DNA from: Candidatus Saccharimonadales bacterium
GTDB taxonomy: Bacteria; Patescibacteriota; Saccharimonadia; Saccharimonadales; EFPC-124
Length of the DNA stretch: 58,771 nt
NCBI GenBank assembly: GCA_035457345.1
Contig: DATIBT010000032.1
Span: 1-58,771 of the forward strand
Direction of reading: 5' to 3'
Shown here: positions 11,732 to 27,215 of the stretch, piece after piece
Layout: each line of letters opens with the position of its first letter
How positions within the stretch are numbered: position 1 is the stretch's first letter
Position numbers and translations under genes: made by a program
The notes under the pieces: generated by a model
What the model was told of the DNA's origin: nothing
What the model saw: only the letters and a program-made list of their open reading frames with translations
The model's database searches: none

Positions 11732-12544
11732 ATGGCACATCCAGAATACCAATACCTAAAAATGATGGCCGACATCATAAAAGACGGCAAAAGCAAACAT
11801 ACCCGCGGCATCCATGATATCCGCTACCTGTTTGGATACCAGGTGCGGTTCGATATGCGCTACGGATTTCCGCTGCTCACGACCAAAAAGATGCCCTTCA
11901 AGATTTTGTTACACGAACTGCTGTGGTTTATATCTGGCAGCTCTGAGGTAAAGTATCTGCACGACCACAAAATCCATTATTGGGACGGCTTTTTACACGA
12001 AGGCGAGACCGACCTGGGCCGCGTGTACGGGGTGCAGTGGCGCCACTGGCGGCGGCCCGACGGCACCGAATTCGACCAACTACAATGGGCAATCGATGAA
12101 CTCGAAAATAACCCTGATTCTAAAGGCATCATTGTCAACGCCTGGAACGCCGGTGAATTAGGCGAGATGCGCCTGCCCCCGTGCCACACCATGTTTCAGT
12201 TTGACCTGACCAAAGGCAAATTGCGCCTACATCTTTATCAGCGAAGTTGGGACGTATTCTTAGGAGCGCCGTTCAATATTGCCCAGTACGCCATGCTACT
12301 GCATATGGTTGCACATGTGATTGGCGCCGAACCACGCGAACTAATCATTTCCGCGGGCAATGCTCACCTGTATAAAAACCATATAGAGGCAGCCAAGGAG
12401 CAGATCAAACGCAAGCCATACCCATTCCCCAAGCTAACCATGGTGGGCGACATAAAGAACATTGACGATTTTACCGAAGAAAACTTTGTGCTCGAAGGCT
12501 ACGAGGCACACCCTCACCTCAAGACAGATCTTGTAATTCTTTAG
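11732..12544 (+). CDS. thyA: thymidylate synthase ThyA
   Basis: 'YGVQWRHWR', catalytic 'LPPCHTMFQF', 'DVFLGAPFNIAQYAML' (Asn retained), and a C-terminal hydrophobic end 'LVIL'. Confidence 0.95.
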   Translation: MAHPEYQYLKMMADIIKDGKSKHTRGIHDIRYLFGYQVRFDMRYGFPLLTTKKMPFKILLHELLWFISGSSEVKYLHDHKIHYWDGFLHEGETDLGRVYGVQWRHWRRPDGTEFDQLQWAIDELENNPDSKGIIVNAWNAGELGEMRLPPCHTMFQFDLTKGKLRLHLYQRSWDVFLGAPFNIAQYAMLLHMVAHVIGAEPRELIISAGNAHLYKNHIEAAKEQIKRKPYPFPKLTMVGDIKNIDDFTEENFVLEGYEAHPHLKTDLVIL

Positions 12545-12558
12545 TAAAAGGTTATAAT
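12531..12558 (+). promoter_or_regulatory. sigma70-type promoter in front of GC-rich island A
   Basis: TTGTAA-N16-TATAAT. The -35 lies inside the thyA 3' end. It is 41 nt upstream of the ATG. Confidence 0.5.
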
Positions 12559-12598
12559 ACCGTTAAGTAGAAGCTCCAGCAAACGGAGGCGATGTGTT

Positions 12599-13285
12599 AT
12601 GCGACGCTCGCGCGTCCTCGCCGTACTGACGGCCGTAGTCCTTACGGTCAGCATGGCGGCCTGTGGTGAAAGCAGCGGCAACAAAGGAAGCGCAGTCAGT
12701 GTTCCGGTGGCGAAAGTCAATGCCCCGGCCGGCGAGATGCCCCAGACGCTGCCCGTCAGTTTCCTTTGGCCGCAAAACGCCGGCCAGATGCCAGAGAACC
12801 TCAAGGTGAACTTCGGCATCATGGCCAAGTTCACCAAGGGGAACCTAACGCACCCGATGCCGAAGCTCGTCAGAGTAGACGACGCCGTCACCTGCTTGAC
12901 CAACTTCGGCAGTACGTCGCTCCAAGTGGGCGACAAGGCGACGGCCAACGAAGGTTTCAACGCTTTTCATGCGTGCCGGCTCAACGGCGAGCTGGTCATC
13001 GCCTACGGTCCCAAGAAGATGTTCCAGGACCACAAGGACTCGATCGCGACCGACGAGACCGGCGACTTCTGGTACGGCAGCCTGGCCAGCCTCTACCGCA
13101 ACTACCTGGTCGAACTCCACAACCGCAAGTCGCCCACCGACTACACCTGCCTCTACGGACTGGTGCTGGGCGGACTGCGCGACGCCAAGTACGTGCCAGA
13201 GTCGGTGGCAACTATCGAGGAAACACTGGCAACAGCGGCACAGAAGACGGCTTTCAACAAAGGCCGCGACGAAGGTAGTTGCTGA
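12599..13285 (+). CDS. lipoprotein of unknown function, foreign (high-GC3) composition
   Basis: Signal peptide plus lipobox 'LTVSMAAC|G'. GGAGG lies 9 nt upstream. Codons are strongly G/C-ending (11 AAG vs 3 AAA by hand count). Long overlapping shadow ORFs occur in the other frames. Confidence 0.7.
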   Translation: MRRSRVLAVLTAVVLTVSMAACGESSGNKGSAVSVPVAKVNAPAGEMPQTLPVSFLWPQNAGQMPENLKVNFGIMAKFTKGNLTHPMPKLVRVDDAVTCLTNFGSTSLQVGDKATANEGFNAFHACRLNGELVIAYGPKKMFQDHKDSIATDETGDFWYGSLASLYRNYLVELHNRKSPTDYTCLYGLVLGGLRDAKYVPESVATIEETLATAAQKTAFNKGRDEGSC

Positions 13286-13290
13286 TGTGC

Positions 13291-13318
13291 GCGGGCGGGC
13301 CGCCAAGGCCCGCCCCGC
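13291..13318 (+). terminator. GC-rich stem-loop without U-tract after island A gene
   Basis: GCGGGCGGGCC-GCCAA-GGCCCGCCCCGC starts 6 nt after the stop codon. Confidence 0.5.
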
Positions 13319-13365
13319 ACGCACAACTAGACGAATTACCGGTAGTGTCATACCATAGACAAATC

Positions 13366-13992
13366 ATGAAAAATCAGAAAGATTTCTGGAAGGTTAACCA
13401 CACCAAACTTCTGGGTGGCTATTCCGACCACCACACGACGTATGCCGAGGAGGTCGTAAGGACATTCCCGTCACACGCCCGTGTGCTGGATCTTGGCACG
13501 GGCGAAGGAAACGATGCCTTTTACTTTGCCGAAAATGGCCACACCGTGGTTGCAACAGACTTCTTACCCGAATTGCTCACTATAGGCAAATCACGCTACA
13601 GCCACAAAAATCTCACATTTCTTGAACAGGACATAAGTCAACCGCTCAAATTCGCCACTAACGAATTTGATGTTGTGTATGCGCGCCTATCGCTGCACTA
13701 CTTTACCAATGCAACTACACGCGGCATTTTCACAGAAATCGCCCGCGTCTTAAAGCCCGGCGGCAAGTTCTGCTTTATGTGCAAATCACCCGACGACCGC
13801 CGCTATGGGCAGGGTGTCCAAATTGAACCAGACATGTTCGACTACAACGGCCACATTAGACACTTCTTCAGTGAAGACTATGCGCGCAGCTTACTCGCAA
13901 AGGACTTCACTACCGAGCTGCTGCAAGCAGGCAAAGAGCAACTTTACGCCGAAGTTTCAGCATTTACCAAAGTTATTGCGACAAAGAAGTAA
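13366..13992 (+). CDS. class I SAM-dependent methyltransferase
   Basis: Motif I 'VLDLGTGEGNDAFYF', motif II 'FDVVYA', and post-II 'LKPGG'. The start is placed at ATG 13366 because the ORF-track start at 13279 would read through the GC-rich hairpin of the upstream island. Confidence 0.85.
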   Translation: MKNQKDFWKVNHTKLLGGYSDHHTTYAEEVVRTFPSHARVLDLGTGEGNDAFYFAENGHTVVATDFLPELLTIGKSRYSHKNLTFLEQDISQPLKFATNEFDVVYARLSLHYFTNATTRGIFTEIARVLKPGGKFCFMCKSPDDRRYGQGVQIEPDMFDYNGHIRHFFSEDYARSLLAKDFTTELLQAGKEQLYAEVSAFTKVIATKK

Positions 13993-15118
13993 GCCCGACA
14001 TACAAGGCGGCATGTTCCTGGCACATACGATTAAGAGTAAAACGCCGTTCAAATGCCTTCCGGCACGCCGTGCGGTCAATAGCGTCGATTCTGCGAATCG
14101 CCTCGGCAATACCGGCTTCATCGTCGACGACAAATCCAGTCACCCCATCCTCAATAAGCTCTGGGATAGCGCCAGAGCGCATACCAATAACCGGCGTGCC
14201 ACAGGCAAGTGCTTCTATAACGACCATGCCGAACGGCTCATCGAACGTCGAGGGAACAATGAGCGCTCTGGCGTTTGCCAAAAACGCCTGGCGCTCTGAT
14301 TGCTCGCGTAAAAAGCCGACATATTCGGCACCGCGGCCAAGCGCAGGCGAAATACTCTCCTGCCAATACGAATCTTTGGCGCCAGAATAATGCTTGCCAG
14401 CAATTTTGAGCGGCACACCGGCTTGCTTTGCCGCTGCAATTGCTAAATGCGCGCCTTTCGGCGCAATGAGTCGGCCCATAAAAGCTACGTAATCAGCGGT
14501 GAGCCTGGGCTCGAAGGCAAACGCTTCCTTTTTGAGGCCGTGGTAAATATTCGCCACCCAGTTTGTTCCTTTTGGCATAGCGCTGCGCTGCGCCAGCGAC
14601 ATAGAAACCCAGTTGAGCTGCTGGTATTTAGGAAAAACGTTTTTGTACTTCACCAAAAAATTAAACGGATCATGATGCGTAAATATAACCGGCTTTTGGC
14701 AAAGCTGCGCAAAGGGGAGGGCGGTGTCTTCTTCGTTCGTATATATATGAACAATGTCGAACTCGCCAGCGTTGGCGGCTGTGTATGCTTTGGCAATTAT
14801 TTCTGCCTGCACCTGGCGGGCAAGGGTAATAAAGGTAAAGGGATGCTTTTTTAGGAGATCTAGATAAGAGTCACCGCGGCCCGCAAGCTCACGCTCAAAA
14901 TAAGACAAATCAGCGCCAACCGTTTTAACGGTTGTAGCAACCGGGCCGGGGGAGAAAAGCGTTACCTGCGCGCCAAGCACCTGCAGCCCCTCCGCCAGGT
15001 CAACCGCTAACCGCCCCGGCGAAAAAATAACGTGCGGCAAAATCTCTTTATGCAAAAAGATATGCGGGACTACTAGCGCAATGCGCAGTGGTTTATTTGC
15101 TGTCGGCTGGTTTGTCAT
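13973..15118 (-). CDS. glycosyltransferase family 4
   Basis: 381 aa. GT-B/GT4 E-x7-E region 'PSTFDEPFGMVVIEALACGTPVIGMRSGAIPELIEDGVTGF'. Confidence 0.9.
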   Translation of the reverse strand: MTNQPTANKPLRIALVVPHIFLHKEILPHVIFSPGRLAVDLAEGLQVLGAQVTLFSPGPVATTVKTVGADLSYFERELAGRGDSYLDLLKKHPFTFITLARQVQAEIIAKAYTAANAGEFDIVHIYTNEEDTALPFAQLCQKPVIFTHHDPFNFLVKYKNVFPKYQQLNWVSMSLAQRSAMPKGTNWVANIYHGLKKEAFAFEPRLTADYVAFMGRLIAPKGAHLAIAAAKQAGVPLKIAGKHYSGAKDSYWQESISPALGRGAEYVGFLREQSERQAFLANARALIVPSTFDEPFGMVVIEALACGTPVIGMRSGAIPELIEDGVTGFVVDDEAGIAEAIRRIDAIDRTACRKAFERRFTLNRMCQEHAALYVGLTSLSQ

Positions 15119-15221
15119 CGTCTTGATCCAAGAAGCTTAGATCAAGTTCTTCAGAACTAACATCGTCGTCGCCGTAGTAAGCGTCTGCTTCTGGTACTGG
15201 TGGTTGATCTGGTTGCGACAT
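15093..15221 (-). CDS. candidate 42-aa acidic micro-ORF overlapping the GT4 start
   Basis: Hand translation gives MSQPDQPPVPEADAYYGDDDVSSEELDLSFLDQDDDKPADSK. 'AGAGGGA' lies about 7 nt upstream. It is below the ORF-track length cut-off and its stop lies 23 nt inside the GT4 gene. Confidence 0.2.
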   Translation of the reverse strand: MSQPDQPPVPEADAYYGDDDVSSEELDLSFLDQDDDKPADSK

Positions 15222-15277
15222 AGAAATCCCTCTTATTCACTATTATTATGCGCACCCAAACATGGGATTGCAAATAG

Positions 15278-15306
15278 TTGACTATAATAAATATAAATGT
15301 TATAAT
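15278..15306 (+). promoter_or_regulatory. consensus-like sigma70 promoter in front of GC-rich island B
   Basis: TTGACT-N17-TATAAT sits in an AT-rich patch 55 nt upstream of the ATG at 15362. Confidence 0.6.
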
Positions 15307-15340
15307 AATACCAATCAGTCGTCCGGCTGGTTTGCACTAC

Positions 15341-15788
15341 GACAAGCAGATGTGAGGTATCATGGACAGCCACCAGACGTTCTATGGCCGCTCCCTACAC
15401 ACAGCGATTGTGGCGCACACCGTCGCCACCGGTATCGTTGGCCTCGTGCAAACTGCACGCGAGACGGACCAGGAGTATCGAGACTTCCGCGCACGAATCG
15501 CCCTCGAATCAGGTTGCGAGATCGAACTGATCGTGTCTATCGCACGGCGCGATGCCAGAGTCAGTGTCGAGGCGTGCGCGTCCGAAAACGACAGGCCGCT
15601 GGACACGGACATCCTGAACAAGGTTCTCGAGCTGCTGCCCAAGTACTACCCTGGCGGCACCGCGGTCTGTGACAACGGCTTCGACATCAGCCTCAAGTTC
15701 ACCGGGCGTTAGCCGCAGCCACACCCCCAGGTTCCACCTGCAAGAAGGTGTGGCGGCGATCAGGATCCAATCCTGTCATCTGCTTGTC
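15341..15788. repeat. 12-bp perfect inverted repeat bracketing the island B gene
   Basis: GACAAGCAGATG at 15341..15352 and its reverse complement CATCTGCTTGTC at 15777..15788. Confidence 0.6.
15362..15712 (+). CDS. hypothetical protein, foreign (high-GC3) composition
   Basis: 116-aa ORF lying 55 nt downstream of a TTGACT-N17-TATAAT promoter. 'GTGAGGT' precedes the ATG. G/C-ending codons, with shadow ORFs on other frames. Confidence 0.55.
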   Translation: MDSHQTFYGRSLHTAIVAHTVATGIVGLVQTARETDQEYRDFRARIALESGCEIELIVSIARRDARVSVEACASENDRPLDTDILNKVLELLPKYYPGGTAVCDNGFDISLKFTGR

Positions 15789-15806
15789 ACATCTTCGTAT
15801 TATCAT

Positions 15807-15840
15807 GCAAAACCCCGCTCACATTTGAGCGGGGTTTTGC
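15807..15840. terminator. bidirectional rho-independent terminator between islands B and C
   Basis: Perfect 14-bp stem GCAAAACCCCGCTC/GAGCGGGGTTTTGC with loop ACATTT and AT-rich flanks on both sides. Confidence 0.75.
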
Positions 15841-15867
15841 ATTTATAAATTCAAGTTTTTAGAGTCC

Positions 15868-15914
15868 CTACCGGGCGGACGAGGCCATCCGTGGCCTACA
15901 AGCCCGCCCGGTAG
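15868..15914 (-). terminator. GC-rich nested hairpin after island C gene
   Basis: Outer arms CTACCGGGCGG/CCGCCCGGTAG enclose an inner AGGCCA-TCCG-TGGCCT hairpin. It lies 9 nt past the stop on the minus strand and has no U-tract. Confidence 0.5.
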
Positions 15915-15922
15915 ATGGGCGA

Positions 15923-16180
15923 TTACGCAGGAAGAGCGGCGCGCTGTTGCGTTGCCACCCAAGCTCGGAGACTGGGCTTGTGGTACAGCTCCGAGATCCG
16001 ACGGAAGAGTGAGCGGATCACGCTCAGCTCCCGTTGCGTCACCACGATCATTGCCTCACGCAGATACGCCCTCGCTCCACAAAGGAGCAGGTCAATCCGC
16101 GAAAGCTCATCGTCGCCGAGCGACGCCGCTTCATCGACAGCGCTACGCGCCTCGCCAATGAGGTCCTCTGCAGTCATCAC
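15923..16180 (-). CDS. small helical hypothetical protein, foreign (high-GC3) composition
   Basis: 85-aa ORF. GGAGG lies 5 nt before the GTG and 8 nt before the ATG. A GC-rich nested hairpin sits 9 nt after the stop. Shadow ORFs on the + strand. Confidence 0.5.
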   Translation of the reverse strand: MMTAEDLIGEARSAVDEAASLGDDELSRIDLLLCGARAYLREAMIVVTQRELSVIRSLFRRISELYHKPSLRAWVATQQRAALPA

Positions 16181-16621
16181 GTTCGCCTCCAGCGGTGCTG
16201 CGCTCTGATGGTTCCAAGCTGGTCGCCAGGCCAGCTTCCTTGCGTATGACGGCCGGTTAGTTCAAGGCGAAAACCGTACCGTATTTGTGTTATGGGCGTT
16301 ACCTCCTCCTTTCAGACGAGGCCCCGTAAGCTTGGGAGGGCCAGTATCCCAAGCTTACGGCGCGTCATCTGATTGTTAAAAAATCGAGCTCTTCCTCTGT
16401 GGGTTGAGCTCGGTTCTTACAATCTTTGTATGTGTTGTAAACTAGCGGTCAACCCCATGCATCGGGCGCACAATAATGAGACCAAGGAGCTTGGCTTGCA
16501 TGTTTGCACTGGTGCAGAGGTTAACTTTATTCACGATAATATTTACGCACAAGCATTGCGCCTAGTCAAGCACAATCTTACAATAGTGGCTAAGTTGCAC
16601 GCCCGGCTTGGGAGGTAGACG

Positions 16622-16801
16622 ATGCGCAAAGGCAAGGCACACCACATGACGCGCAATGCTGGCACCGTCTGCAAGGCGGTTATCGTAGGCGTCTGCGTGT
16701 TTATTGGAGTGGTTGGCTGGAAGGTTGCCAATCAGATGGGTCAAATAATCCTGCAAGAGCGTGATATGCAGTCCAGGGGGCGGCATCGGCTCAAGCGCTA
16801 G
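16622..16801 (+). CDS. candidate 59-aa single-TM micro-protein
   Basis: Hand translation gives MRKGKAHHMTRNAGTVCKAVIVGVCVFIGVVGWKVANQMGQIILQERDMQSRGRHRLKR. GGGAGG lies 5 nt upstream. It is just below the ORF-track cut-off and competes with the antisense ORF 16562..16867. Confidence 0.25.
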   Translation: MRKGKAHHMTRNAGTVCKAVIVGVCVFIGVVGWKVANQMGQIILQERDMQSRGRHRLKR

Positions 16802-16880
16802 TTTGCTCCAACCAGGGCGGGGCCGTTTTTGAAACAGGCCCCGCCCTGAGGCGTGCAACCCCCTCAAACCTCAAGAACTG

Positions 16881-16909
16881 TTGACACACGCACAATGTTT
16901 AGGTACACT
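16881..16909 (+). promoter_or_regulatory. promoter of the rplJL operon
   Basis: TTGACA-N17-TACACT, about 200 nt upstream of rplJ. Confidence 0.55.
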
Positions 16910-17109
16910 AAAATAGAACATTACCACAGACAGTAGCGGTCCATACGGACGATAAGAATGCTACCGAGGCAGTGACATAAAAATTCGTGTTCTCTCCCTG
17001 AACAAGAGTCTTTGGTAGTGCGAGAATCAAAGACTCTTTTTTTAATTGTCTTTATCTCAACCGAAACTTTACAATTTGGTCGAACAACTAAGTACAAAGG
17101 AGTTACCAC
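16910..17109 (+). promoter_or_regulatory. rplJ 5' leader with intrinsic attenuator (candidate L10(L12)4-responsive leader)
   Basis: About 200 nt of untranslated leader. It contains the 11-bp hairpin AAGAGTCTTTG/CAAAGACTCTT plus a T7 run at 17004..17043, 66 nt before the rplJ ATG. Confidence 0.6.
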
Positions 17110-17643
17110 ATGGCAATTTCACGCCAGACAAAGGAAACTCAGGTTGCTGAACTGGCCGAACTGCTTGGCGCTGCTAAGCTGACGGTTTGCGCTCAGTACC
17201 AGGGTCTCACCGTAAAAGAACTCCAAAGCTTACGTCGTGCTGCTCGCGAAGCAAACGTTACCATTAAAGTGGTTAAAAACCGCTTAGTGCGTGTTGCGCT
17301 TAGCCAGACAGAAGCATTAAAAGACGTCGACACAAGCGCTCTCACTGGCCAGCTGCTCTACGCAGCCAGCAGTGAAGACGAAGTTGCCCCAGCCCAAGTG
17401 CTGGCCAAATTCGCCAAAGAGCACGAGGCACTTAAACTGGTCAGCGCCATTGACGCTACCGGTACTGTGCTGGCCGAAGCCGACGTTAAGGCCCTCGCAA
17501 ACCTGCCTACCAAGGACCAACTCCGTGGTATCCTGGTTGGCACCATTGCCGCACCGCTTACCGGTTTCGTCAATGTTATGGCCGGCAATGTCCGTGGCGT
17601 TTTGAACGTTTTGAACGCCCGCGCCGAAGCTTTGGAAAATTAA
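17110..17643 (+). CDS. rplJ: 50S ribosomal protein L10
   Basis: 177 aa. 'KETQVAELAELL...TVCAQYQGLTVKELQSLRR' is the L10 pattern. AAGGAG RBS present. Followed by rplL. Confidence 0.95.
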   Translation: MAISRQTKETQVAELAELLGAAKLTVCAQYQGLTVKELQSLRRAAREANVTIKVVKNRLVRVALSQTEALKDVDTSALTGQLLYAASSEDEVAPAQVLAKFAKEHEALKLVSAIDATGTVLAEADVKALANLPTKDQLRGILVGTIAAPLTGFVNVMAGNVRGVLNVLNARAEALEN

Positions 17644-17675
17644 TTAGCATCTATCTCACTTAAAGGAGAATAATC

Positions 17676-18089
17676 ATGGCAGACGAAGAAAAGAAGACTG
17701 TCGAAGTACCAGCCGAGTTTAAGAAACTCGTCGACGAGCTCGACAAAATGAGCGCGCTGGAAATCAGCAAATTTGTAAAATTCCTTGAAGAATACTGGGG
17801 CGTTAGCGCCGCTGCACCTGCTGTAGCTGTTGCCGCTGCTCCTGCCGAAGGTGGCGCTGCCGCTGCTGCCGACGAAAAGACCGAGTTCACCGTTACCCTT
17901 AAGGACGCCGGTGGCCAGAAGGTCGCTGTCATTAAGGCTGTTAAAGACCTGACCGGTCTTGGCCTTGGTGAAGCTAAGGCTTTAGTCGACAACGTTCCAA
18001 GCCCAATCAAAGAGAAAGTCAGCAAAGACGAAGCCGACGCTGCAAAGAAAGCTTTGGAAGAAGCTGGCGCTACCGTCGAAGTCGCCTAA
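17676..18089 (+). CDS. rplL: 50S ribosomal protein L7/L12
   Basis: 137 aa with an Ala-rich hinge and the C-terminal domain '[24 protein letters not shown]'. Confidence 0.95.
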
Positions 18090-18124
18090 GCACGTCAACG
18101 TTCGACCATATTGTACCAAAACAG

Positions 18125-18147
18125 CACCCCTCAACAGGGGTGTTTTT
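18125..18147 (+). terminator. rho-independent terminator after rplL
   Basis: CACCCCT-CAAC-AGGGGTG followed by TTTTT. Confidence 0.8.
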
Positions 18148-18159
18148 GGTGCGCAATGC

Positions 18160-18188
18160 TTGACTTTACCACAAGCCGGGAGTAGGCT
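18160..18188 (+). promoter_or_regulatory. promoter-like element downstream of the rplL terminator
   Basis: TTGACT-N17-TAGGCT. Confidence 0.4.
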
Positions 18189-18278
18189 GTAGACATGTCA
18201 AAACAATGGATGATTGTGGGTTTTATGCTTGTGCGCCAATAACGGCGTCGGTTTAGCGTGATTCCAACAACCACCAAG

Positions 18279-18307
18279 CCGAGCCGTGACCAGCCGCTCG
18301 GTTTTTT
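18279..18307 (+). terminator. terminator/attenuator-like hairpin 20 nt upstream of the M20 peptidase start
   Basis: CCGAGC-(11 nt)-GCTCGG followed by TTTTTT. Confidence 0.4.
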
Positions 18308-18326
18308 AGTGCAGAAGGCCAAACCT

Positions 18327-20258: not shown

Positions 20259-20366
20259 GTTATCTCAAAACTACGGTTCACGGCGGCCGCACTACTCCTT
20301 GCCCGCACCCAGCGTTATAAAATACTACAGTGTGCCCGCACAGTCTGCGCTATACTTAAACCAAGT

Positions 20367-21827
20367 ATGGGGCAGGCATTATATAGAAAGTACCGTTCAA
20401 GGTCGCTTGATGAGCTCGTTGGGCAGGAGCATATTACGCAGACACTGGCCAGGGCTCTGAAGGCAGGGCGGGTAAGTCATGCGTATTTGTTTACCGGTCC
20501 GCGCGGGGTTGGTAAAACAAGTGTGGCTCGTATTCTGGCACACGAAATTAACGGCCTGCCCTACAGCGATTCCCAGAATCTCGACATTATAGAAATTGAC
20601 GCGGCAAGTAACCGCCGCATAGATGATATTCGCGATTTGCGCGAAAAAGTGTTCATTGCCCCGGTTAGCAGTAAATATAAAGTATACATAATAGACGAAG
20701 TGCACATGCTCACAGGGGAGAGTTTTAATGCACTCCTTAAGACGCTTGAGGAACCGCCAAGCCACGTGGTATTTATCCTTGCCACAACAGAGGCCCATAA
20801 ACTGCCTGCGACCATTGTAAGCCGCACGCAGCGGTTTGCGTTTAGGCCTGTCGCGCGTGAGAAAGTCATGGTGCACCTACGCGAACTCGCCGACAAAGAA
20901 AAGATTGCCATAACAGATGAGGCGCTAGGGCTCATAGCCGACCATGGGGAGGGGAGTTTCCGCGACAGTATTAGCTTGCTCGACCAATTAGCCCATTCTT
21001 CCGCCGAGGAGATCAACACCGGAGATGTTGAGAGGACCCTAGGCCTGGCCCCGAAGAAACAAATAGACCTGCTTATCCACTACCTCAAAGACCAGGACCG
21101 TGAGGGAATCGCCAAGACCCTTAGAGAACTCACAGCCCAGGGAACAAGTACCAGTACCTTAGTAGGCCAACTAAGTATGGCTGTTGCAAACGCTGCGCAT
21201 AAAGAAAAGGGGGCAAAACTTTACGAGGTTCTCGATGGCTTGCTCGATGTGCCCCGCGCTTACAACCCAGAGCTGAAACTCCTAACTGTCCTCATGCGCG
21301 CAACCGCGCCGAGCGTCAAAGCTGAGCCAAAAAGCGCCCCTGCCACCGTTACGGCCCCAACCGTAACTATTGCCGAAGTTGCGCCAAAACGAACCGCACC
21401 CGTCACTATTAAATCTGAAGCTCCCACACAGAAAACAGCAGAGCCACCTACCGAAGCAGCCTTACAGAGCAGTACCCCACTAGAGAGTTTTAGCCTCGAA
21501 GACTGGCATACCGTACTCGCCCAACTCAAAGCGAACAACCCACCGCTTTATAGCGTTGCCAAACAAGCCCAACCCGAGTTTGATGCAGAAAAACAAGCGC
21601 TCACACTTCACTTTAAATACCAGCTGCATCGCAAGAAACTTGACGACCCTAAGCATAAAGCTGCGCTTGTGAGCCTCATGAATACCATTCTTGGTGGCGC
21701 GCCAAGTATAGCCACAAATGTCAACAAGGACGCCACACCTCCGCCACCACCTCCCGCCGATCCAACCCTTGCCAACGTTGCTGCTATTATGGGTGGAGGG
21801 GAAATTATACATGCCGAAAACGTCTGA
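20367..21827 (+). CDS. dnaX: DNA polymerase III subunit gamma/tau
   Basis: Walker A 'GPRGVGKTS', 'IIDEVHMLT' and sensor 'SRTQRF'. Ala/Pro/Thr-rich C-terminal region. Confidence 0.95.
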   Translation: MGQALYRKYRSRSLDELVGQEHITQTLARALKAGRVSHAYLFTGPRGVGKTSVARILAHEINGLPYSDSQNLDIIEIDAASNRRIDDIRDLREKVFIAPVSSKYKVYIIDEVHMLTGESFNALLKTLEEPPSHVVFILATTEAHKLPATIVSRTQRFAFRPVAREKVMVHLRELADKEKIAITDEALGLIADHGEGSFRDSISLLDQLAHSSAEEINTGDVERTLGLAPKKQIDLLIHYLKDQDREGIAKTLRELTAQGTSTSTLVGQLSMAVANAAHKEKGAKLYEVLDGLLDVPRAYNPELKLLTVLMRATAPSVKAEPKSAPATVTAPTVTIAEVAPKRTAPVTIKSEAPTQKTAEPPTEAALQSSTPLESFSLEDWHTVLAQLKANNPPLYSVAKQAQPEFDAEKQALTLHFKYQLHRKKLDDPKHKAALVSLMNTILGGAPSIATNVNKDATPPPPPPADPTLANVAAIMGGGEIIHAENV

Positions 21828-23184
21828 CAGAAAGCCGAACCAGCCCAGTAAACCGGCTGGCGCAAAGCTGCCACCGCAAAACCTCGACGCCGAGACCAGC
21901 CTGCTCGGCGCAGTGCTTATTGACGAGAATGTCCTGACACGCATTAGCGATAAAGTGGTCGCCGACGACTTTTACGATCGCCGCCACCAACTCATCTTTG
22001 CGGCCATGATTAGCTTGTACGAGCACCACAAGCCAGTCGACCTCCTTACCCTGGCCGATGAGCTCAAAAAACGCAGCGAACTTGACGACGCCGGGGGCTC
22101 TGACTATTTATCAGAGCTTACCAATCAGGTGCCAACCGCCGCTCACGCCGAAGGCTACGCCGACATCATTACGCAAAATGGCATGCGCCGCCGGCTCATT
22201 ACTGCCAGTGGGGCAATTGCCGAGCTCGGGTTTGATGAGTCACAAAGCGCCCAAGAGCTCCTCTCCAATGCCGAGGCCCAACTGTTTGCCGTCTCCGACC
22301 AAACACTGCGCCAAGACCTGACCAGTCTTGAGCAAATCCTAACCGAAAGCTTCGACCGCATGGAAGAACTCCATCGGGACAAGTCCAAAATGCGCGGTAT
22401 TCCAACCGGCTACCGCGATATGGATAACATGATGGCCGGCCTGCAGCGCAGCGACCTTATTATTCTTGCCGCCCGCCCTGCCATGGGTAAATCCACGTTT
22501 GCTCTTAACTTGGCGCACAATGTGGCGGTGGGAGCTAAACACTCTGTGCTTGTGTTCAGTCTTGAGATGAGCAAAGAGCAGTTAGTTGACCGCATGCTCG
22601 CCGACGAAGCAGGGGTGGACGCCTGGAATATTCGCACCGGCAACCTTAGCGACGAGGATTTCGAAAAACTCAGCCACGCCATGGGCGTCCTTGCCGAAGC
22701 GCCTATTTATATAGATGACACCCCTGGCTTAAGTGTGCTTGAGCTACGTACTAAAGCCCGCCGGGCGGCGCATGACCGGCCGCTTGGCCTTATCGTCGTC
22801 GACTACCTGCAGCTTATGAGCGGTAGCCGCACCGGTGGCGATAACCGCGTGCAAGAAATTTCAGAGATATCACGCGGCTTAAAACTTGTAGCCCGCGAGT
22901 TAAACGTGCCAGTGATCGCGCTCAGTCAGTTAAGCCGTTCCGTAGAAAGCCGCAACCCACCCCACCCGCAACTATCTGACCTGCGCGAATCAGGCTCTAT
23001 TGAGCAAGACGCCGATATCGTCATGTTCCTGTACCGCGAAGATTATTACAATCCGGAGACCGACCGCGCGCACGTTACCGACCTTATGATCAAGAAACAT
23101 CGTAACGGGCCCGTAGGTAACGTGGAGCTTTACTTCCATCCTGAACGACTAAAGTTTATGACACTAGACAAACATCACGAATAA
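21811..23184 (+). CDS. dnaB: replicative DNA helicase DnaB
   Basis: 'PPQNLDAETSLLGAVL', Walker A 'ARPAMGKST', 'VVDYLQLM' and 'SQLSRSVE'. The ATG at 21811 follows GGAGGGG and overlaps the dnaX 3' end by 17 nt. Confidence 0.95.
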   Translation: MPKTSDRKPNQPSKPAGAKLPPQNLDAETSLLGAVLIDENVLTRISDKVVADDFYDRRHQLIFAAMISLYEHHKPVDLLTLADELKKRSELDDAGGSDYLSELTNQVPTAAHAEGYADIITQNGMRRRLITASGAIAELGFDESQSAQELLSNAEAQLFAVSDQTLRQDLTSLEQILTESFDRMEELHRDKSKMRGIPTGYRDMDNMMAGLQRSDLIILAARPAMGKSTFALNLAHNVAVGAKHSVLVFSLEMSKEQLVDRMLADEAGVDAWNIRTGNLSDEDFEKLSHAMGVLAEAPIYIDDTPGLSVLELRTKARRAAHDRPLGLIVVDYLQLMSGSRTGGDNRVQEISEISRGLKLVARELNVPVIALSQLSRSVESRNPPHPQLSDLRESGSIEQDADIVMFLYREDYYNPETDRAHVTDLMIKKHRNGPVGNVELYFHPERLKFMTLDKHHE

Positions 23185-23193
23185 TTATATAAT
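23165..23193 (+). promoter_or_regulatory. sigma70-type promoter in front of GC-rich island D
   Basis: TAGACA-N17-TATAAT. The -35 lies inside the dnaB 3' end. Confidence 0.5.
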
Positions 23194-23242
23194 AGAGTCA
23201 ACGTACGGCGTAGACTCGCCGACGACGCACACCACCTGTTCA

Positions 23243-23845
23243 ATGGAGGCTGACGTGACACCGTTCACGGCTTTCGTCCCGACCACCCACAAACTCTACC
23301 CCTCGCGCATCGCCGGCAACCCGATGGAACGCGAGCAGGTCCGCGACGGTCTGACCGCGCTGCACGAGGCGGTCTGGCCGCTCAACCCCATCCAGCGGCC
23401 GCTGTCGTTCGAGGAAATGATGACTGTCTTCAGGGCGGTCGAAACCCTCACCGACGACTTCCCAACCACAGGCGGACGAACCCCGGTCGGCTACAACGAG
23501 CAACTCAGCAACCTGCACTACTGGCTCCGCCAGGAAGCACTGGCTGAGGCAACCCGGGTGTTCGGGACCCGCTACGCGGAGCTCGAACTGCCCAAGCTCA
23601 CTCCAGACCAGTGGCTCATGCTGTGCCGGGCCGCCTACGCCAACTACCAGATCATCTGGGCGAAGGATACGCACACGGGCAAGGATCTACTGGCGCTCCA
23701 GCAGGCCATTCACGGCACAATCGGTGCGCTCAAGGAGCTCATCACCATGCCCGAGGCCCCTCCCATGAGCGTCAGCTGCAAGTCCTGGGGCATGTACGGC
23801 CCATGGATGACGGTCATCGACACCCTCACGAACCAGCTCCTCTGA
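23243..23845 (+). CDS. hypothetical protein, foreign (high-GC3) composition
   Basis: 200-aa ORF. The true start could instead be the GTG at 23255, 5 nt after GGAGG. A TAGACA-N17-TATAAT promoter lies upstream and a GC-rich U-less hairpin downstream. Shadow ORFs on other frames. Confidence 0.55.
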   Translation: MEADVTPFTAFVPTTHKLYPSRIAGNPMEREQVRDGLTALHEAVWPLNPIQRPLSFEEMMTVFRAVETLTDDFPTTGGRTPVGYNEQLSNLHYWLRQEALAEATRVFGTRYAELELPKLTPDQWLMLCRAAYANYQIIWAKDTHTGKDLLALQQAIHGTIGALKELITMPEAPPMSVSCKSWGMYGPWMTVIDTLTNQLL

Positions 23846-23854
23846 ACACGTGGC

Positions 23855-23886
23855 GTTCCCCGCGGCCGGCACCCGGCCGCGGGAAC
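23855..23886 (+). terminator. GC-rich stem-loop without U-tract after island D gene
   Basis: GTTCCCCGCGGCCGG-CAC-CCGGCCGCGGGAAC starts 10 nt after the stop codon. Confidence 0.55.
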
Positions 23887-23903
23887 ACCCCAAGACCGTA
23901 AGG

Positions 23904-23925
23904 CACGCCGATATGGCGTGTTTTT
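23904..23925 (+). terminator. second, native-style rho-independent terminator
   Basis: CACGCC-GATAT-GGCGTG followed by TTTTT. Confidence 0.6.
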
Positions 23926-23945
23926 GATATACTACAAGTAACCAT

Positions 23946-25412
23946 ATGAACATTCGCCCAGTGAACGAGTGGACCTTATACCGCATGCGCTTTTTGCTAG
24001 CGTATGTACTGCTGGCGATAATCACCGCCGCGCTCCTTGCATTCTATTTAGATATTGCACCGCCCGGCCTTGGCCCGACCGAAAAACAAAGCATCGTCAG
24101 CTCTGCCGCTATTAGTTTTAAAGAACCACCAACTAATATTGTCGATCTGCCGTTTCATGTTTTGCAAAAGCTAAGTGTGGAATGGTTGGGCGTAACACCG
24201 CTGGGCGTACGATTACCGTCGCTTGTATTTGGCGGGCTGACCGCGCTCTGCATGGCACTGCTGTTGCGACGCTGGTTTAAAACGAATATTGCACTGGCAG
24301 TCAGCCTTATATTTGTGACGTCAACGTGGTTTTTAAGCGTCGCCAGACTTGGCGCACCGTTTATTATGATTCCTCTCTGGACGAGCATACTCTTGTTAAC
24401 CGCAACGTATGTGTCGCAACAAACGAAGGCCTGGAAATGGTGGCGCGTTGCGTTCGCCATGGCAGCCGCGCTGTCTATGTACACGCCATTTATGGCGTAC
24501 TTCTTTATTGCAGCAGCTTTGGCAACCATTGCCCAGCCACATTTACGGTACTTGTTGCGTGAAAGCAATAGGGTCAACCTGTTTATCGGTGGTTTCTTCT
24601 TCATATTACTTCTTGTGCCATTGGGGTGGGGAATCTACAAAGAGCCTGGCGTCATCCGTGACTTGCTCGCCATTCCAGCGGCGCTGCCAGACCCGCTGCA
24701 GTTTGCCAAAGGCTTGTGGCATGCGATTAGTAATGTGATTAACCCCTACAACCTTGCTGCCACTGAAATGATCACGCCCACCCTTGGTATCGTCACCTGC
24801 GCCCTACTCCTGACTGGTGGCGCAAGACTACTGCGTGACTTTCACTCCGTGCGTGCCCACGTACTATTACTGTGGGCTGCGTTACTCGTGCCGATTGTTG
24901 CCTTCAACCCAACGCAACTTACCGCACTTTTGGTGCCTACCATGCTAGTTGTCGCTATTGGCTTGAACCAAATTATCCGCTATTGGTACCGCTTGTTTCC
25001 CCGCAATCCATACGCCAGATTGTTTGGCTTAGTGCCGCTAACGATTCTAGTGATAAGCATTGTGCAGCTCAATTATCAACGCTATACCTTCGGCATGATT
25101 TATAGCAAGCAAGCCGGTCAGACATTTAACCAAGATGCGTTCCTTGCGCAAAAAGAATTAATGAATATAGATAAAGCCCGGCCGGTGACTTTTGTGGTCG
25201 CACCTGAGAATGAAGCGCTATATAACGTTCTTGCCGGCCGACGGCCATCTACAGCCGTTGAAACAGGCGAAACAGCCAGTGACAGGGCGGGTACCTGGAT
25301 TGTGCAAAACTCGCAGTATAATACCGTGGCGCAAAAAGTTGGCGCGCCCAGTAAATTGCTTGTCACCGACCAAAAAGCCGATGCCCTACGTTTGACCGTT
25401 CACGAACGGTAG
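23946..25412 (+). CDS. GT-C fold membrane glycosyltransferase (family 39/83, ArnT/PMT-like)
   Basis: 488 aa with about 11 TM helices. N-terminal architecture 'VEWLGVTPLGVRLPSLVFGGLTALCMALLLRRWF' is typical of ArnT-like enzymes, followed by a C-terminal soluble domain. Confidence 0.6.
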   Translation: MNIRPVNEWTLYRMRFLLAYVLLAIITAALLAFYLDIAPPGLGPTEKQSIVSSAAISFKEPPTNIVDLPFHVLQKLSVEWLGVTPLGVRLPSLVFGGLTALCMALLLRRWFKTNIALAVSLIFVTSTWFLSVARLGAPFIMIPLWTSILLLTATYVSQQTKAWKWWRVAFAMAAALSMYTPFMAYFFIAAALATIAQPHLRYLLRESNRVNLFIGGFFFILLLVPLGWGIYKEPGVIRDLLAIPAALPDPLQFAKGLWHAISNVINPYNLAATEMITPTLGIVTCALLLTGGARLLRDFHSVRAHVLLLWAALLVPIVAFNPTQLTALLVPTMLVVAIGLNQIIRYWYRLFPRNPYARLFGLVPLTILVISIVQLNYQRYTFGMIYSKQAGQTFNQDAFLAQKELMNIDKARPVTFVVAPENEALYNVLAGRRPSTAVETGETASDRAGTWIVQNSQYNTVAQKVGAPSKLLVTDQKADALRLTVHER

Positions 25413-25453
25413 ACGCATATCTGTTATAATAATCCCATACAAGGAGACCTTAC

Positions 25454-25741
25454 ATGTTTGACCAAGCAAAAATGCTCATGAAGATTAAGAAAGCCCAAAA
25501 AGAGCTCGCCAACGAAATTATTGAAGTCGAAGCTGGCGACGGCGCCGTAGTAGTGCGGATAACCGGCGAGCAGAAAATTAAGAATATAGAGATTGACCCA
25601 GAGCAAGTCGACCTAAACGACATCCACGAACTCGAGCGCTGGATTGAAACGGCCGTTAAAGAAGCTATTAATCGTTCGCAACAAGTAGCCGCGGAAAAAA
25701 TGAAGCCCCTGATGGGCAGCCTTGGCAAATTAGGGTTGTAA
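25454..25741 (+). CDS. ybaB: YbaB/EbfC nucleoid-associated protein
   Basis: 95 aa. 'MLMKIKKAQKELANEIIEVEAGDGAVVVRITGEQKIKNIEIDPE' is the YbaB pattern. Located upstream of recR. Confidence 0.9.
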   Translation: MFDQAKMLMKIKKAQKELANEIIEVEAGDGAVVVRITGEQKIKNIEIDPEQVDLNDIHELERWIETAVKEAINRSQQVAAEKMKPLMGSLGKLGL

Positions 25742-25753
25742 GCAGGCCGAGCC

Positions 25754-26365
25754 GTGGCGACAATCCTCCCAAAGGCACTATTGCATTTGATTGACGAGCT
25801 TGGCAAATTACCAGGTGTTGGCCCGCGCACAGCTGAGCGCTACGCTTATGATTTACTGCGCCGCGATCCCAGTATTGCAACTAGAGTAGCCGACGCTATC
25901 TCTCATTTGCATGCCGGCGTAAAGTACTGTCCTAAAACATTCGCCCTCATAGAAAAGGAGCAAGACGTCTCACCGTTATACACCGATCCAGAGCGGGACA
26001 AGACGCTGGTTGCCGTAGTCGAGGAACCGCTCGACGTTGTAGCACTCGAGCGTACCGGCCAATTTAAGGGCACCTACCACGTGCTGGGCGGGGTTATTTC
26101 TCCAATTGATGGGATAGGGCCAGAGCAGTTGCACATACAAGAGCTGCTTGATCGCATAGACACTGACAACGTGAAAGAAGTTATCTTGGCAACGAACGCG
26201 AGCGTGGAAGGCGAATCAACAGCGCTGTACTTGCAAAAACGCATAAGCGACAAGCCTGGGGTGAATGTGACACGCTTGGCGCGCGGACTGCCTGTGGGAG
26301 TTGACCTTGAGTATGCAGACCAGATTACCCTTTCTCATGCCCTTGAGGGCCGCCAGCAAGTTTAA
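25754..26365 (+). CDS. recR: recombination protein RecR (zinc-finger cysteines largely missing)
   Basis: HhH 'LGKLPGVGPRTAERYAY' and Toprim 'VVEEPLDVVALERTGQFKGTYHVLGG...ILATNASVEGESTALY'. GTG start. The whole protein contains only one Cys. Confidence 0.95.
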   Translation: MATILPKALLHLIDELGKLPGVGPRTAERYAYDLLRRDPSIATRVADAISHLHAGVKYCPKTFALIEKEQDVSPLYTDPERDKTLVAVVEEPLDVVALERTGQFKGTYHVLGGVISPIDGIGPEQLHIQELLDRIDTDNVKEVILATNASVEGESTALYLQKRISDKPGVNVTRLARGLPVGVDLEYADQITLSHALEGRQQV

Positions 26366-26367
26366 TA

Positions 26368-26396
26368 TTGTAAAAACATTACTTTTATTGTATAAT
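26368..26396 (+). promoter_or_regulatory. promoter-like element between the recR stop and its terminator
   Basis: TTGTAA-N17-TATAAT, using the same -35 hexamer as the island A promoter. It lies 90 nt upstream of the island E ATG. Confidence 0.4.
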
Positions 26397-26407
26397 CACA
26401 CTTCAGT

Positions 26408-26436
26408 AAACCCATCTGTCTACAGAGTGGGTTTTT
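26408..26436 (+). terminator. rho-independent terminator after recR
   Basis: AAACCCATCTG-TCTA-CAGA(G)TGGGTTT followed by TTT. Confidence 0.7.
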
Positions 26437-26485
26437 GTAGCCGGGCGTTGCCTGGTATCACATCGAACGGAAGGATAGATCCGAG

Positions 26486-27115
26486 ATGTTCGGAATCCGC
26501 ACCACCCCGCGTCGCGCGGGTCTCAGCGCGACTGCCGTAGTCGCCGCCCTGCTGGCCCTCATGGGCTGCCAGACCGGCGGTAAGGACAACAAGCCGACGG
26601 CCTTCGCAGGCAGCCCCACGAGCGCAACCAGCGCGCCCGAGGTCACCGTGACCACGGACGCGCCCGAGACCGCTCCCACCACCCCCGAGTCCGACTCGCC
26701 GTCGTCCGCACCGACCACCACACCGGCGGCCAGTGCCACCATCGACGCCACGAACCCGGACGCCGGTGGCTCCTCCCACATGACCGCCATCACCACGGTG
26801 CAGTGCCCCAAGGGACTGCCGGTGAGCGGCGTGTTCGTGGAGGGCAACGGTAGCGAGGACAAGCCGCCGTACGGCGACCTGGACATCTGGGACAACCAGC
26901 GCAACCGACTGACCGTCTTGCACACCGTCCTGCCCACCGAGTCGTACAAGATCAGCTTCGGCTGCGGTTACGTCAAGGGGGCGGACCACGAGTGGGAGTA
27001 CGGCTTCGAGACGCTGCCGCTCTTCGCGCCGAGCCAGGGAACCAAGCACACCATCGTGTGCCCCAAGGTCAATGGCAAGACGTGCAACGTGGACGGCGTC
27101 ATGCGGAACATCTGA
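26486..27115 (+). CDS. Cys-rich lipoprotein of unknown function, foreign (high-GC3) composition
   Basis: Signal peptide plus lipobox 'LALMGC|Q', a Thr/Pro/Ser linker, then a domain with 6 further Cys. Codons are strongly G/C-ending. 252- and 163-aa shadow ORFs lie on the opposite strand. Confidence 0.7.
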   Translation: MFGIRTTPRRAGLSATAVVAALLALMGCQTGGKDNKPTAFAGSPTSATSAPEVTVTTDAPETAPTTPESDSPSSAPTTTPAASATIDATNPDAGGSSHMTAITTVQCPKGLPVSGVFVEGNGSEDKPPYGDLDIWDNQRNRLTVLHTVLPTESYKISFGCGYVKGADHEWEYGFETLPLFAPSQGTKHTIVCPKVNGKTCNVDGVMRNI

Positions 27116-27125
27116 TCCCGTTCTA

Positions 27126-27169
27126 CGCGGCCGCGCCGAACGCCCCAGCGGCGAATCGGTGCGGCCGCG
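27126..27169 (+). terminator. GC-rich inverted repeat after island E gene
   Basis: CGCGGCCGC...GCGGCCGCG forms a 9-bp stem with a 26-nt loop. No U-tract. Confidence 0.4.
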
Positions 27170-27215
27170 CACGTCCAAGCTTTAAACCAGGTGTAAACCT
27201 GTTAGAATATAACGA

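Follow-up and report, generated by a model that had tools for sequence, protein, structure and literature searches.

In the amelioration framework, which is reportedly due to Lawrence and Ochman, a gene whose guanine plus cytosine (GC) content at third codon positions (GC3) lies far from the resident equilibrium is regarded as a recent arrival. The concept of the phage moron is said to go back to Juhala and Hendrix. A moron is a gene with its own promoter, its own terminator and a deviant GC content (Cumby, Davidson and Maxwell 2012, PMC3594210). Transformable bacteria are enriched in hotspots of horizontal gene transfer (HGT) that lack mobile genetic elements (MGEs) and have core genes on either side; their turnover is attributed to recombination in the flanks, and the model predicts elevated recombination in those core genes (Oliveira, Touchon, Cury and Rocha 2017, PMC5635113). 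Here, a complete contig of 58,771 bp (the window; overall GC content 51.6%) from a small soil Saccharibacteria (Saccharimonadales) metagenome-assembled genome (MAG) was analysed. Saccharibacteria are obligate epibionts with tiny, very syntenic genomes, and their gain of new functions is poorly documented. Five single-gene islands of high GC3, named I1–I5, are located in the window at the operon boundaries thyA|GT4 (I1), GT4|rplJ (I2 and I3), dnaB|GT-C (I4) and recR|DHH (I5). We consider it reasonably probable that their five open reading frames (ORFs) represent single-gene cassettes, imported recently from at least one genome of about 65–70% GC and placed in operon-boundary slots.

The islands resemble MGE-free HGT hotspots in that they lie between syntenic core genes, their cargo differs between relatives, no integrase or transposase accompanies them and the lineage is a competent one. 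They differ in that each slot holds a single gene and not a multi-gene islet, the cargo is extremely GC-deviant and has no detectable homologues, and the genome is that of a highly reduced episymbiont. As in phage morons, one extra gene stands between genes that are adjacent in relatives, with a promoter-like site before it, a hairpin behind it and a deviant GC content. Unlike morons, the islands lie in a cellular chromosome among thyA, rplJ, dnaB and recR, have no significant PHROG family, have putative terminators lacking a U-tract (U-less) and a left promoter-like site built at least partly from recipient sequence; I1, I4 and I5 match none of 50,697 phage records. As with unameliorated acquired genes, the range of GC3 (0.67–0.90) can reflect differences in age or in donor; the usual phylogenetic confirmation is missing here, since no lineage could be named as the donor. 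Integron cassettes, including CALIN/SALIN, also consist of a single ORF followed by an imperfect inverted repeat, and their cargo varies at a fixed position. The integron reading was rejected because the window has no Phage_integrase domain or IntI and no attI, the cassettes are scattered over 15 kb with promoter-like sites and form no array, and no attC boxes (R''/L''...L'/R'; RYYYAAC ... GTTRRRY) were found in the five 3′ hairpins by inspection. We class the finding as a further example of a familiar phenomenon, single-gene islets that were gained horizontally and occupy permissive, reused slots at operon boundaries, and not as a new kind of genetic system.

The closest matches of the DnaB protein are in Saccharibacteria MAGs (60–73% identity), and cluster-mates carry the name Candidatus Saccharimonadales, which agrees with the Saccharibacteria-like organism supposed in the initial annotation of this DNA. 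The backbone proteins, with few exceptions, are singletons in 90% clusters. The local GC content rises from about 0.50 to 0.60–0.73 at five places between 12.5 and 27.2 kb, with peaks at 12.6–13.3, 15.4–15.75, 15.85–16.35, 23.2–23.9 and 26.5–27.2 kb. The maximum-likelihood change points were 12601–13322, 15320–15758, 15866–16364, 23206–23910 and 26497–27176. In every island, the compositional steps span from about the start codon or a short 5′ untranslated region (UTR) to the end of the 3′ hairpin. The GC3 reference was a set of 45 backbone genes (mean 0.547, standard deviation (sd) 0.036, maximum 0.63), against which z was calculated for each ORF. The computed GC3 of I1–I5 was 0.80, 0.77, 0.67, 0.85 and 0.90, which is 3.4 to 9.8 sd above the backbone. 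The five islands had been proposed from overlapping ORFs and codon endings, and the hand count given for I1 (11 AAG and 3 AAA) was exact on recount. The accompanying claim that overlapping ORFs pile up only at the islands did not hold, as three or more overlapping ORFs pile up at 25 places in the window.

Codon usage differs between the islands and the backbone for AAG (0.88 vs 0.39), TTC (0.96 vs 0.37) and ATC (0.88 vs 0.23). The preferred island codons are C-ending, with GTC over GTG, CTC about equal to CTG, and ACC, TTC and ATC. The GC contents at the three codon positions follow the pattern GC1 > GC2 << GC3. This order indicates genuine coding sequence from a genome of about 65–70% GC and is unlike random GC-rich DNA. 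The five island ORFs are compositionally foreign. High expression of native genes was rejected as a cause of high GC3, as rplJ and rplL have a GC3 near 0.52.

The gene order rplJ-rplL-(o19703)-dnaX-dnaB-GT-C-ybaB-recR-DHH-cysS is conserved in about 25 Saccharibacteria loci, and the conserved genes flanking the islands are those that the initial annotation had named. Against this syntenic backbone, the island ORFs are lineage-specific insertions. L081, the closest long relative, was reached through a 90% L7/L12 cluster-mate and is a 92-kb contig from a Saccharimonadales MAG (GC content 50.7%). Its gene order is almost equal to that of the window, and the protein identities are 85% for DnaB, 82% for RecR and 64% for GT-C. 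I1, I2 and I3 are missing from L081. L081 has high-GC3 genes of its own: c4 (201 amino acids (aa), GC3 0.78, 16039–16644) in dnaB|GT-C, c5 (237-aa lipoprotein, GC3 0.71, 19220–19933) in recR|DHH, and a third gene (180 aa, GC3 0.88, 466–1008) upstream of rplK. These three cassettes each have a U-less GC hairpin. The DNA homology between the window and L081 stops at 23193 (the −10 element past the dnaB stop codon) and at 26366 (the recR stop codon), and resumes just before GT-C and DHH. The content of the slots is variable: dnaB|GT-C holds I4, c4 or nothing, and recR|DHH holds I5, c5 or various genes of native GC content. I5 and c5 are not similar (Smith-Waterman z 0.0). I4 and c4 gave a BLASTP E-value of 0.027 with 24% identity over 140 collinear residues and a Smith-Waterman z of 3.0, which is not significant.

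The recR|DHH cassette of L081 recurs with its flanks in three other samples (L085–L087) at about 88% nucleotide identity. The c5 orthologues have a synonymous divergence (dS) of 0.49, a nonsynonymous divergence (dN) of 0.041 and a dN/dS of 0.08, and their GC3 is 0.71–0.72 in both lineages. A dN/dS of 0.08 over this dS indicates that c5 is a functional gene under purifying selection that was vertically inherited across that interval. The dS of backbone genes between the window and L081 ranges from 0.8 to saturation. Amelioration was modelled as a neutral Jukes-Cantor-type decay, in which the GC3 deviation shrinks as exp(−4d/3) per lineage. Under this model, even d = 0.4 needs a starting GC3 above 1 for I4 and I5. 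With saturated dS and a GC3 of 0.85–0.90, I4 and I5 would therefore have entered after the split of the window from L081, and the model argues that the window cassettes arrived after that split. The proposal of repeated, independent acquisitions gained from these data, as L081 holds different high-GC3 genes in the same two slots and the synonymous sites are saturated.

The junctions of the islands were compared with Logan contigs of run SRR25158331, an independent public assembly. These contigs are 100% identical to the window at 7721–14883, 14858–18467, 21679–25950 and 26601–29529. Seven of the eight junctions are reproduced (both of I1, of I2 + I3 and of I4, and the right junction of I5), which speaks against the chimeric assembly that had been named as a risk. 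The spanning contigs are L084 for the I1 junctions, L089 for I2 and L090 for the right junction of I5.

Each cassette is 0.44–0.72 kb long and comprises a 5′ UTR with a GGAGG-type Shine-Dalgarno sequence (5/5 ORFs), the ORF and a U-less GC-rich hairpin directly 3′ of the stop codon (5/5; folding free energy (dG) −24.5 to −38.6 kcal/mol, z −3.7 to −5.4). The 5′ UTRs of the island genes are 34–83 nt long. No sequence common to the 3′ hairpins was found on comparison. U-less GC-rich hairpins downstream of the islands had been described before and were recovered; the statement that the 15.4-kb island (I2) lacks one was wrong, as a hairpin is located at 15714–15758. A sigma-70-like consensus scan over 16 kb, with scores out of 12, gave six distinct promoter matches of at least 10/12. 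Four of them precede islands, at 12531, 15278, 23165 and 26368, and are the four near-consensus promoters quoted in the initial annotation; a fifth is the rplJ-leader promoter. The island promoter matches score 10–11/12 and serve four of the five ORFs. The predicted proteins I1–I5 are judged to be real from strong codon periodicity, two lipoprotein signal peptides and the dN/dS of 0.08 of the positional analogue in the sister lineage. Inspection of the translations agreed with the two lipoproteins proposed earlier: I1 (...LTVSMAA|C) and I5 (...LLALMG|C) have a lipobox ([LVI][ASTVIM][GAS]C) after an N-terminal signal peptide. A cell-surface role is likely for these two predicted lipoproteins.

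I4 occupies the dnaB|GT-C slot. The spacer between dnaB and GT-C is 762 bp long in the window and 25–78 bp long in 13 distant relatives. The 13 short spacers hold a single extended −10 element (TGnTATAAT or TATACT) 8–14 nt before the GT-C start codon. In the window, a junction promoter (TAGACA-N17-TATAAT, 23165–23193, plus strand; 10/12 or better) has its −35 element inside dnaB codons, and its −10 element begins 3 nt past the dnaB stop codon, in the stretch where the DNA homology to L081 ends. The I4 ORF (23255–23845, plus strand; GC3 0.85, z 8.4) starts with GTG at 23255 behind a GGAGG Shine-Dalgarno sequence and encodes a predicted all-helical protein of 196 aa. It is followed by a U-less GC-rich hairpin with a perfect 11-bp palindrome as its core (23852–23889, plus strand; dG −31.4, z −3.9). 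A small native hairpin with TTTTT and then the ancestral GT-C −10 element TGATATACT (hexamer 23928–23933) occupy 23904–23933 on the plus strand, and this −10 element lies 12 nt before the GT-C ATG. The comparison with L094, a short contig from another sample, shows an empty site. The dnaB 3′ end of L094 is 82% identical to the window, versus about 75% for L081, and its dnaB|GT-C site consists of TAG, 38 nt and ATG. The lone −10 element of L094, TGTTATACT, is near-identical to the GT-C −10 element of the window, and together with the 12 nt before the start codon it nearly matches the right side of the window slot. This match indicates an ancestral GT-C promoter, situated to the right of I4. The left −10 element is missing from the empty L094 site. 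As read from these alignments, the left TATAAT arrived with the insertion or later, and it makes up a near-consensus promoter only by its 17-nt spacing from TAGACA in dnaB codons. The idea that the foreign genes were put under native promoters needs revision accordingly for I4: the −35 element lies within dnaB codons, and the −10 element sits at the junction and is absent from the empty site. In L094, positions 1–134 align in reverse to the 5′ region of dnaB, which is a rearrangement or a unitig artefact; the junction from the dnaB 3′ end to GT-C is continuous.

At recR|DHH, the relatives have gaps of 12 to 1469 bp, and the long ones hold unrelated accessory genes of native GC content. The recR|DHH spacer is a general variable slot. 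A promoter-like sequence (TTGTAA-N17-TATAAT, 26368–26396, plus strand; at least 10/12) lies directly past the recR stop codon. Its two hexamers each fall in one copy of a 13-nt direct repeat, TATTGTAAAAACA at 26366–26378 and TATTGTATAATCA at 26386–26398, and this repeat suggests that the promoter arose by local duplication. A terminator-like hairpin with UUUUU follows (26408–26437, plus strand; dG −14.3, z −2.1), which is probably the recR terminator. The I5 ORF (26486–27115, plus strand; GC3 0.90, z 9.8) encodes a predicted 209-aa lipoprotein (LMG|C) whose linker is rich in Pro/Thr/Ser and whose C-terminal domain contains Cys. Its U-less GC-rich 3′ hairpin (27126–27169, plus strand; dG −38.6, z −4.3) has 14-bp arms containing GCGGCCGC. 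The DHH gene has its own promoter at 27181–27208, after the I5 hairpin.

I1 (12599–13285, plus strand; GC3 0.80, z 7.0) encodes a predicted lipoprotein of 228 aa (SMAA|C). The promoter-like TTGTAA-N16-TATAAT upstream of it (12531–12558, plus strand; 10/12) overlaps the final thyA codons with its −35 element, and a GGAGG Shine-Dalgarno sequence is located at 12585–12589. The U-less GC-rich 3′ hairpin (13283–13323, plus strand; dG −34.1, z −5.4) coincides with the end of the island, as the change point is at 13322. I1 is missing from L081 and L001, in which thyA abuts GT4, so I1 and the neighbouring native-GC methyltransferase are additions in the window.

The GT4|rplJ spacer holds I2 and I3. 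The promoter-like TTGACT-N17-TATAAT before I2, with an upstream TG (15278–15306, plus strand; 11/12), sits in a divergent promoter region that I2 shares with the GT4 operon. I2 (15362–15712, plus strand; GC3 0.77, z 6.2) is a 116-aa ORF with no family match and forms a singleton 90% cluster; its 3′ hairpin at 15714–15758 (plus strand) has a dG of −24.5 and a z of −3.7. A bidirectional intrinsic terminator of native style (15805–15842; 17-bp perfect stem with A/T runs, dG −30.6, z −9.9) separates the convergent I2 and I3. I3 (15923–16180, minus strand; GC3 0.67, z 3.4) encodes 84–85 aa, with GTG at 16180 or ATG at 16177 as the start codon and a GGAGG Shine-Dalgarno sequence. Its GC1/GC2/GC3 values are 0.71/0.47/0.67, and an 84-aa product is present on that strand in the public annotation. 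The U-less GC-rich 3′ hairpin of I3 lies at 15868–15914 (minus strand; dG −37.6, z −5.0). By change-point analysis, the GC-rich tract upstream of I3 (16181–16372, minus strand) is still within the island, and it is closed by a hairpin with 26-bp arms (16312–16372; dG −42.5, z −7.1). A candidate sixth, older cassette (16622–16846, plus strand) consists of a 59-aa ORF (16622–16801, GC3 0.68, GGGAGG Shine-Dalgarno sequence) and a U-less GC hairpin (16811–16846, dG −33.7); the ORF has no counterpart in L081. I3 and the 59-aa ORF could be older than the other cassettes, and the hairpins at 16312–16372 and 16811–16846 may be relics of earlier cassettes. An Rfam scan of the I2/I3 spacer detected only the L10 leader.

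A short motif brackets I2 in inverted orientation. The left copy is the exact 12-mer GACAAGCAGATG (15341–15352, plus strand), between the I2 promoter and its Shine-Dalgarno sequence. The right copy, CATCTGCTTGTCAC (15777–15790, plus strand), is inverted relative to the left one, that is, the inverse CATCTGCTTGTC(AC). A copy with one mismatch occurs at 16366–16376, at the far edge of the I3 island. In L011, a distant relative, the same inverted pair (16389–16400 and 17365–17378) brackets an ORF inserted between DHH and cysS, where two tandem cassettes have common promoter and terminator modules and different ORFs. The DHH|cysS content varies among L011, L013 and L021, and the sister genomes L013 and L021 have a different gene in this slot. 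The extended left form GCAC-N3-GACAAGCAGATG occurs in the window and in L011, and in both the last letters of the left copy are ATG, with a stop codon immediately behind them (ATGTGA, ATGTAA). A further copy lies at 9392–9403 of L021. Five exact 12-mers were observed in 1.4 Mb, versus about 0.17 expected by chance. A scan of viral contigs with the extended motif gave five matches, which is the chance level, and no Rfam family covers the motif. It is not found at the boundaries of I1, I4 or I5 and therefore cannot account for the islands collectively. The motif could be a site of pairing between mRNA 5′ and 3′ ends, a protein-binding site or a recombination site.

Homologues of the island proteins were searched for in several collections. 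For I1, I4 and I5, word-seeded HMMER searches of 5.8 billion protein clusters matched only the query itself, and tblastn found no match in phage (50,697 records) or plasmid records. A full phmmer search of I4 against 1.84 billion representatives gave no real homologue; it returned I4 itself and P0030, whose 29-aa match is inflated by six ‘SSDFPTT’ repeats and was judged spurious. I1, I2, I4 and I5 have no significant sequence match in the PDB. For I1–I5 and four L081 cassette proteins, nothing exceeded the threshold in Pfam, PHROGs, NCBIfam or PADLOC; the signal-peptide region of I1 has a sub-threshold PHROG match (E 0.006). The checks for I2 and I3 covered the family libraries and the 90% clusters, plus the PDB for I2. 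When the island DNA was compared with all loci by tblastx, the only matches were compositional noise from high-GC loci of Chloroflexi and Proteobacteria. Single-sequence AlphaFold2 models reached a predicted local distance difference test (pLDDT) score of 50 for I4 and 36 for I1, and both are unusable. Codon usage fits a donor of roughly 65–70% GC, Actinomycetota included but not singled out: codon usage and terminator style are compatible with Actinomycetota but common to other high-GC phyla.

The absence of integrase, tRNA and direct repeats, which the initial annotation had stated, was upheld. Among about 50 window ORFs scanned with Pfam, none has an integrase, transposase or recombinase domain, the tRNA scan of the window found no tRNA, and repeat and inter-island comparisons of the islands found no flanking direct repeats, no target duplication and no shared ends. 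In view of the missing mobile-element genes, tRNA and target-site duplications, integration was most likely carried out by the cell's own recombination functions on competence-acquired DNA. From these observations, we infer the route of uptake and recombination, the activity of the promoters and the function of the genes. DNA would be taken up by natural competence and integrated by the cell's recombination functions, and only insertions in permissive intergenic slots would have survived. The slots are reused, with other high-GC3 genes at the same two positions in a related genome. An AT-rich sigma-70-type promoter at the left junction may drive four of the five cassettes; for I4, this putative promoter would combine the −35 element within dnaB codons with the −10 element at the junction, and the downstream housekeeping gene keeps its own −10 element. 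Saccharibacteria are naturally competent (PMC11665869).

Several points weigh against the import of single-gene cassettes as set out here. No donor was identified, and the lack of homologues of I1, I4 and I5 in the collections searched is unexpected for well-sampled bacterial donors. The weak similarity of I4 and c4 would also permit one older gain, or a gene family common to both. The terminator-like hairpin at 26408–26437 stands between the I5 promoter and the I5 ORF, and the consensus scan gave no promoter match upstream of I3. The promoter and terminator calls come from consensus scanning and folding only, and the natural-transformation route would be an extrapolation from oral Saccharibacteria. 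The stretch 25951–26600, with the recR–I5 left junction, was seen in the MAG assembly only.

Four other explanations were weighed. The initial annotation had suggested that the genes come from the epibiont's own Actinomycetota host and were reused as surface or effector proteins; we now regard this as unlikely. A preference for C-ending codons and U-less GC hairpins are typical of Actinomycetota genes, which the islands with a GC3 of 0.77–0.90 resemble, a resemblance and not a test. Two products are lipoproteins, and the relatives L010 and L013 have a GC-0.71 island between rplA and rplJ that encodes a Big_8 Pro/Thr-rich protein with a LAxTG-type anchor. Cultivated Saccharibacteria grow on Actinobacteria (PMC11665869, PMC8386444). 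Set against this are the searches described above, in which I1, I4 and I5 had no homologue among protein clusters, phages and plasmids, I4 had none among the representatives either, and none of the five proteins matched a Pfam, NCBIfam, PHROGs or PADLOC family. Actinomycetota are heavily sequenced, so this total absence is hard to square with a recent host origin. In TM7x, McLean et al. saw no strong sign of genes derived from the host (PMC7427843). In a second alternative, the cassettes would be old, vertically inherited and fast-evolving residents of these slots whose high GC3 is actively maintained, for example by GC-biased gene conversion at recombination hotspots or by selection. I4 and c4 are near-equal in length and weakly collinear, the slot in both genomes has the same layout (left −10 element, gene, GC hairpin, small T-run terminator, GT-C −10 element), and the L081 recR|DHH cassette keeps its GC3 across a dS of 0.49. 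Residence of this kind is quite improbable in our view: I5 and c5 have no similarity, the dnaB|GT-C slot is empty in L094 and in 13 more distant relatives, and fast-evolving native genes keep an ordinary GC3 (0.55 for the M20 peptidase, with 45% aa identity to L081, and 0.55 for GT-C, with 64%), as do the ribosomal protein genes (near 0.52).

A dedicated cassette-mobilising system not described to date, which would act by site-specific or hairpin-dependent recombination and recognise the 3′ hairpins, the inverted GACAAGCAGATG motif or both, would account for the strong hairpin at the end of all eight high-GC3 cassettes of the window and L081. The inverted 12-mers around I2, the same pair around the inserted ORF of L011 with its tandem cassettes and shared modules, and the excess of exact copies over chance also point in this direction. 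The motif is not at the I1, I4 and I5 boundaries, the hairpins have no common sequence, the window has no recombinase, inspection by eye revealed no R and L boxes of attC type, and the matches in viral contigs are at chance level. The motif is equally readable as an RNA-level pairing of 5′ and 3′ ends or a protein-binding site. We consider such a system very improbable. An artefact, in which high-GC fragments would have entered the contig through chimeric assembly or contamination at binning, is extremely improbable. The contig was assembled from a metagenome, and 26366–26600 is covered by no independent contig retrieved. The Logan contigs are identical across seven of the eight junctions, each insert has both ends exactly within an intergenic spacer, beyond which the same syntenic backbone continues, five such chimeras are implausible, and four independent samples contain the analogous L081 cassette together with its flanks. 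The import of single-gene cassettes into operon-boundary slots is the reading that we retain.

Other features of the window and its relatives were recorded. Native-GC lineage-specific additions also occur at operon boundaries of the window (5330–5713, 7435–8193, 13366–13992 and 18258–19511), and a deoxynucleoside monophosphate-kinase-like gene and an S-adenosylmethionine methyltransferase of the window are missing from L081. Upstream of rplK, the slot that holds a high-GC3 gene in L081 contains, in the window, a 127-aa ORF with a 3′ hairpin and no homologue. Only the window/L081 clade has an M20 peptidase gene between rplL and o19703; a contig scan of genomes with this M20 peptidase found no relative, a metagenome scan with the GT-C alignment gave one distant locus only, and the CysS cluster-mate P0026 led only to unrelated phage-like contigs. 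A GC-0.72 stretch at 33.35–34.5 kb was considered as a sixth island and rejected, as it encodes a Gly-rich part of a predicted surface protein of 1629 aa. This Gly/Ala-rich low-complexity tract (33347–34500, inside ORF 32340–37229, minus strand) owes its high GC content to amino-acid composition, and horizontal transfer is not the cause. Positions 1–350 have a GC content of 0.60–0.62 (ORF 66–344, GC3 0.67) and lie upstream of the gene for a YgjP-like metallopeptidase; the end of the contig truncates this stretch. A 42-aa acidic ORF at 15093–15221 (minus strand) overlaps the GT4 start; its protein is conserved upstream of GT4 in L081 and L001 and is annotated by gene callers.

The rplA–rplJ islands of L010 (2505–4103) and L013 (2164–3846) belong to Saccharibacteria of 45–50% GC from animal-associated samples. 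Their product is a surface protein of 530–560 aa with a Big_8 domain, a long Pro/Thr/Ser linker and a LAHTG or LAVTG end, and a native-GC surface protein of L011 ends in LPKTG instead. The 5′ UTR hairpin of the second L011 cassette (17569–17633) has a sub-threshold Rfam match to RAGATH-10 (30 bits versus a gathering score of 41.2, E 0.005). The Saccharibacteria housekeeping genes examined here have an extended −10 element (TGnTATAAT or TATACT) only 8–14 nt before the start codon, as observed in the dnaB|GT-C and recR|DHH spacers of L001–L014 and L094 and at 23925–23933 and 27181–27208 of the window. This position implies leaderless or very short-leader mRNAs.

A wider proposal is that soil Saccharibacteria keep a few promoter-proximal intergenic slots for the repeated, integrase-free capture of single high-GC neighbour or host genes, which would be expressed from junction promoters and exchanged between strains, with the conserved bracket GACAAGCAGATG ... 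CATCTGCTTGTC marking part of this cassette system. We hold this proposal to be rather improbable at present. If true, the turnover of lipoproteins and relative-less small proteins in the slots would tune the episymbiotic interface. In the window and L081 together, gene gain in a Candidate Phyla Radiation (CPR) episymbiont is resolved junction by junction, one gene at a time and without mobile elements. For genetic work, the slots provide candidates for insertion sites that are neutral or expression-competent. The cassettes are good candidates for lineage-specific surface or interaction proteins, and their donors, if found in the same metagenome, could reveal the physical partners of this uncultivated lineage.

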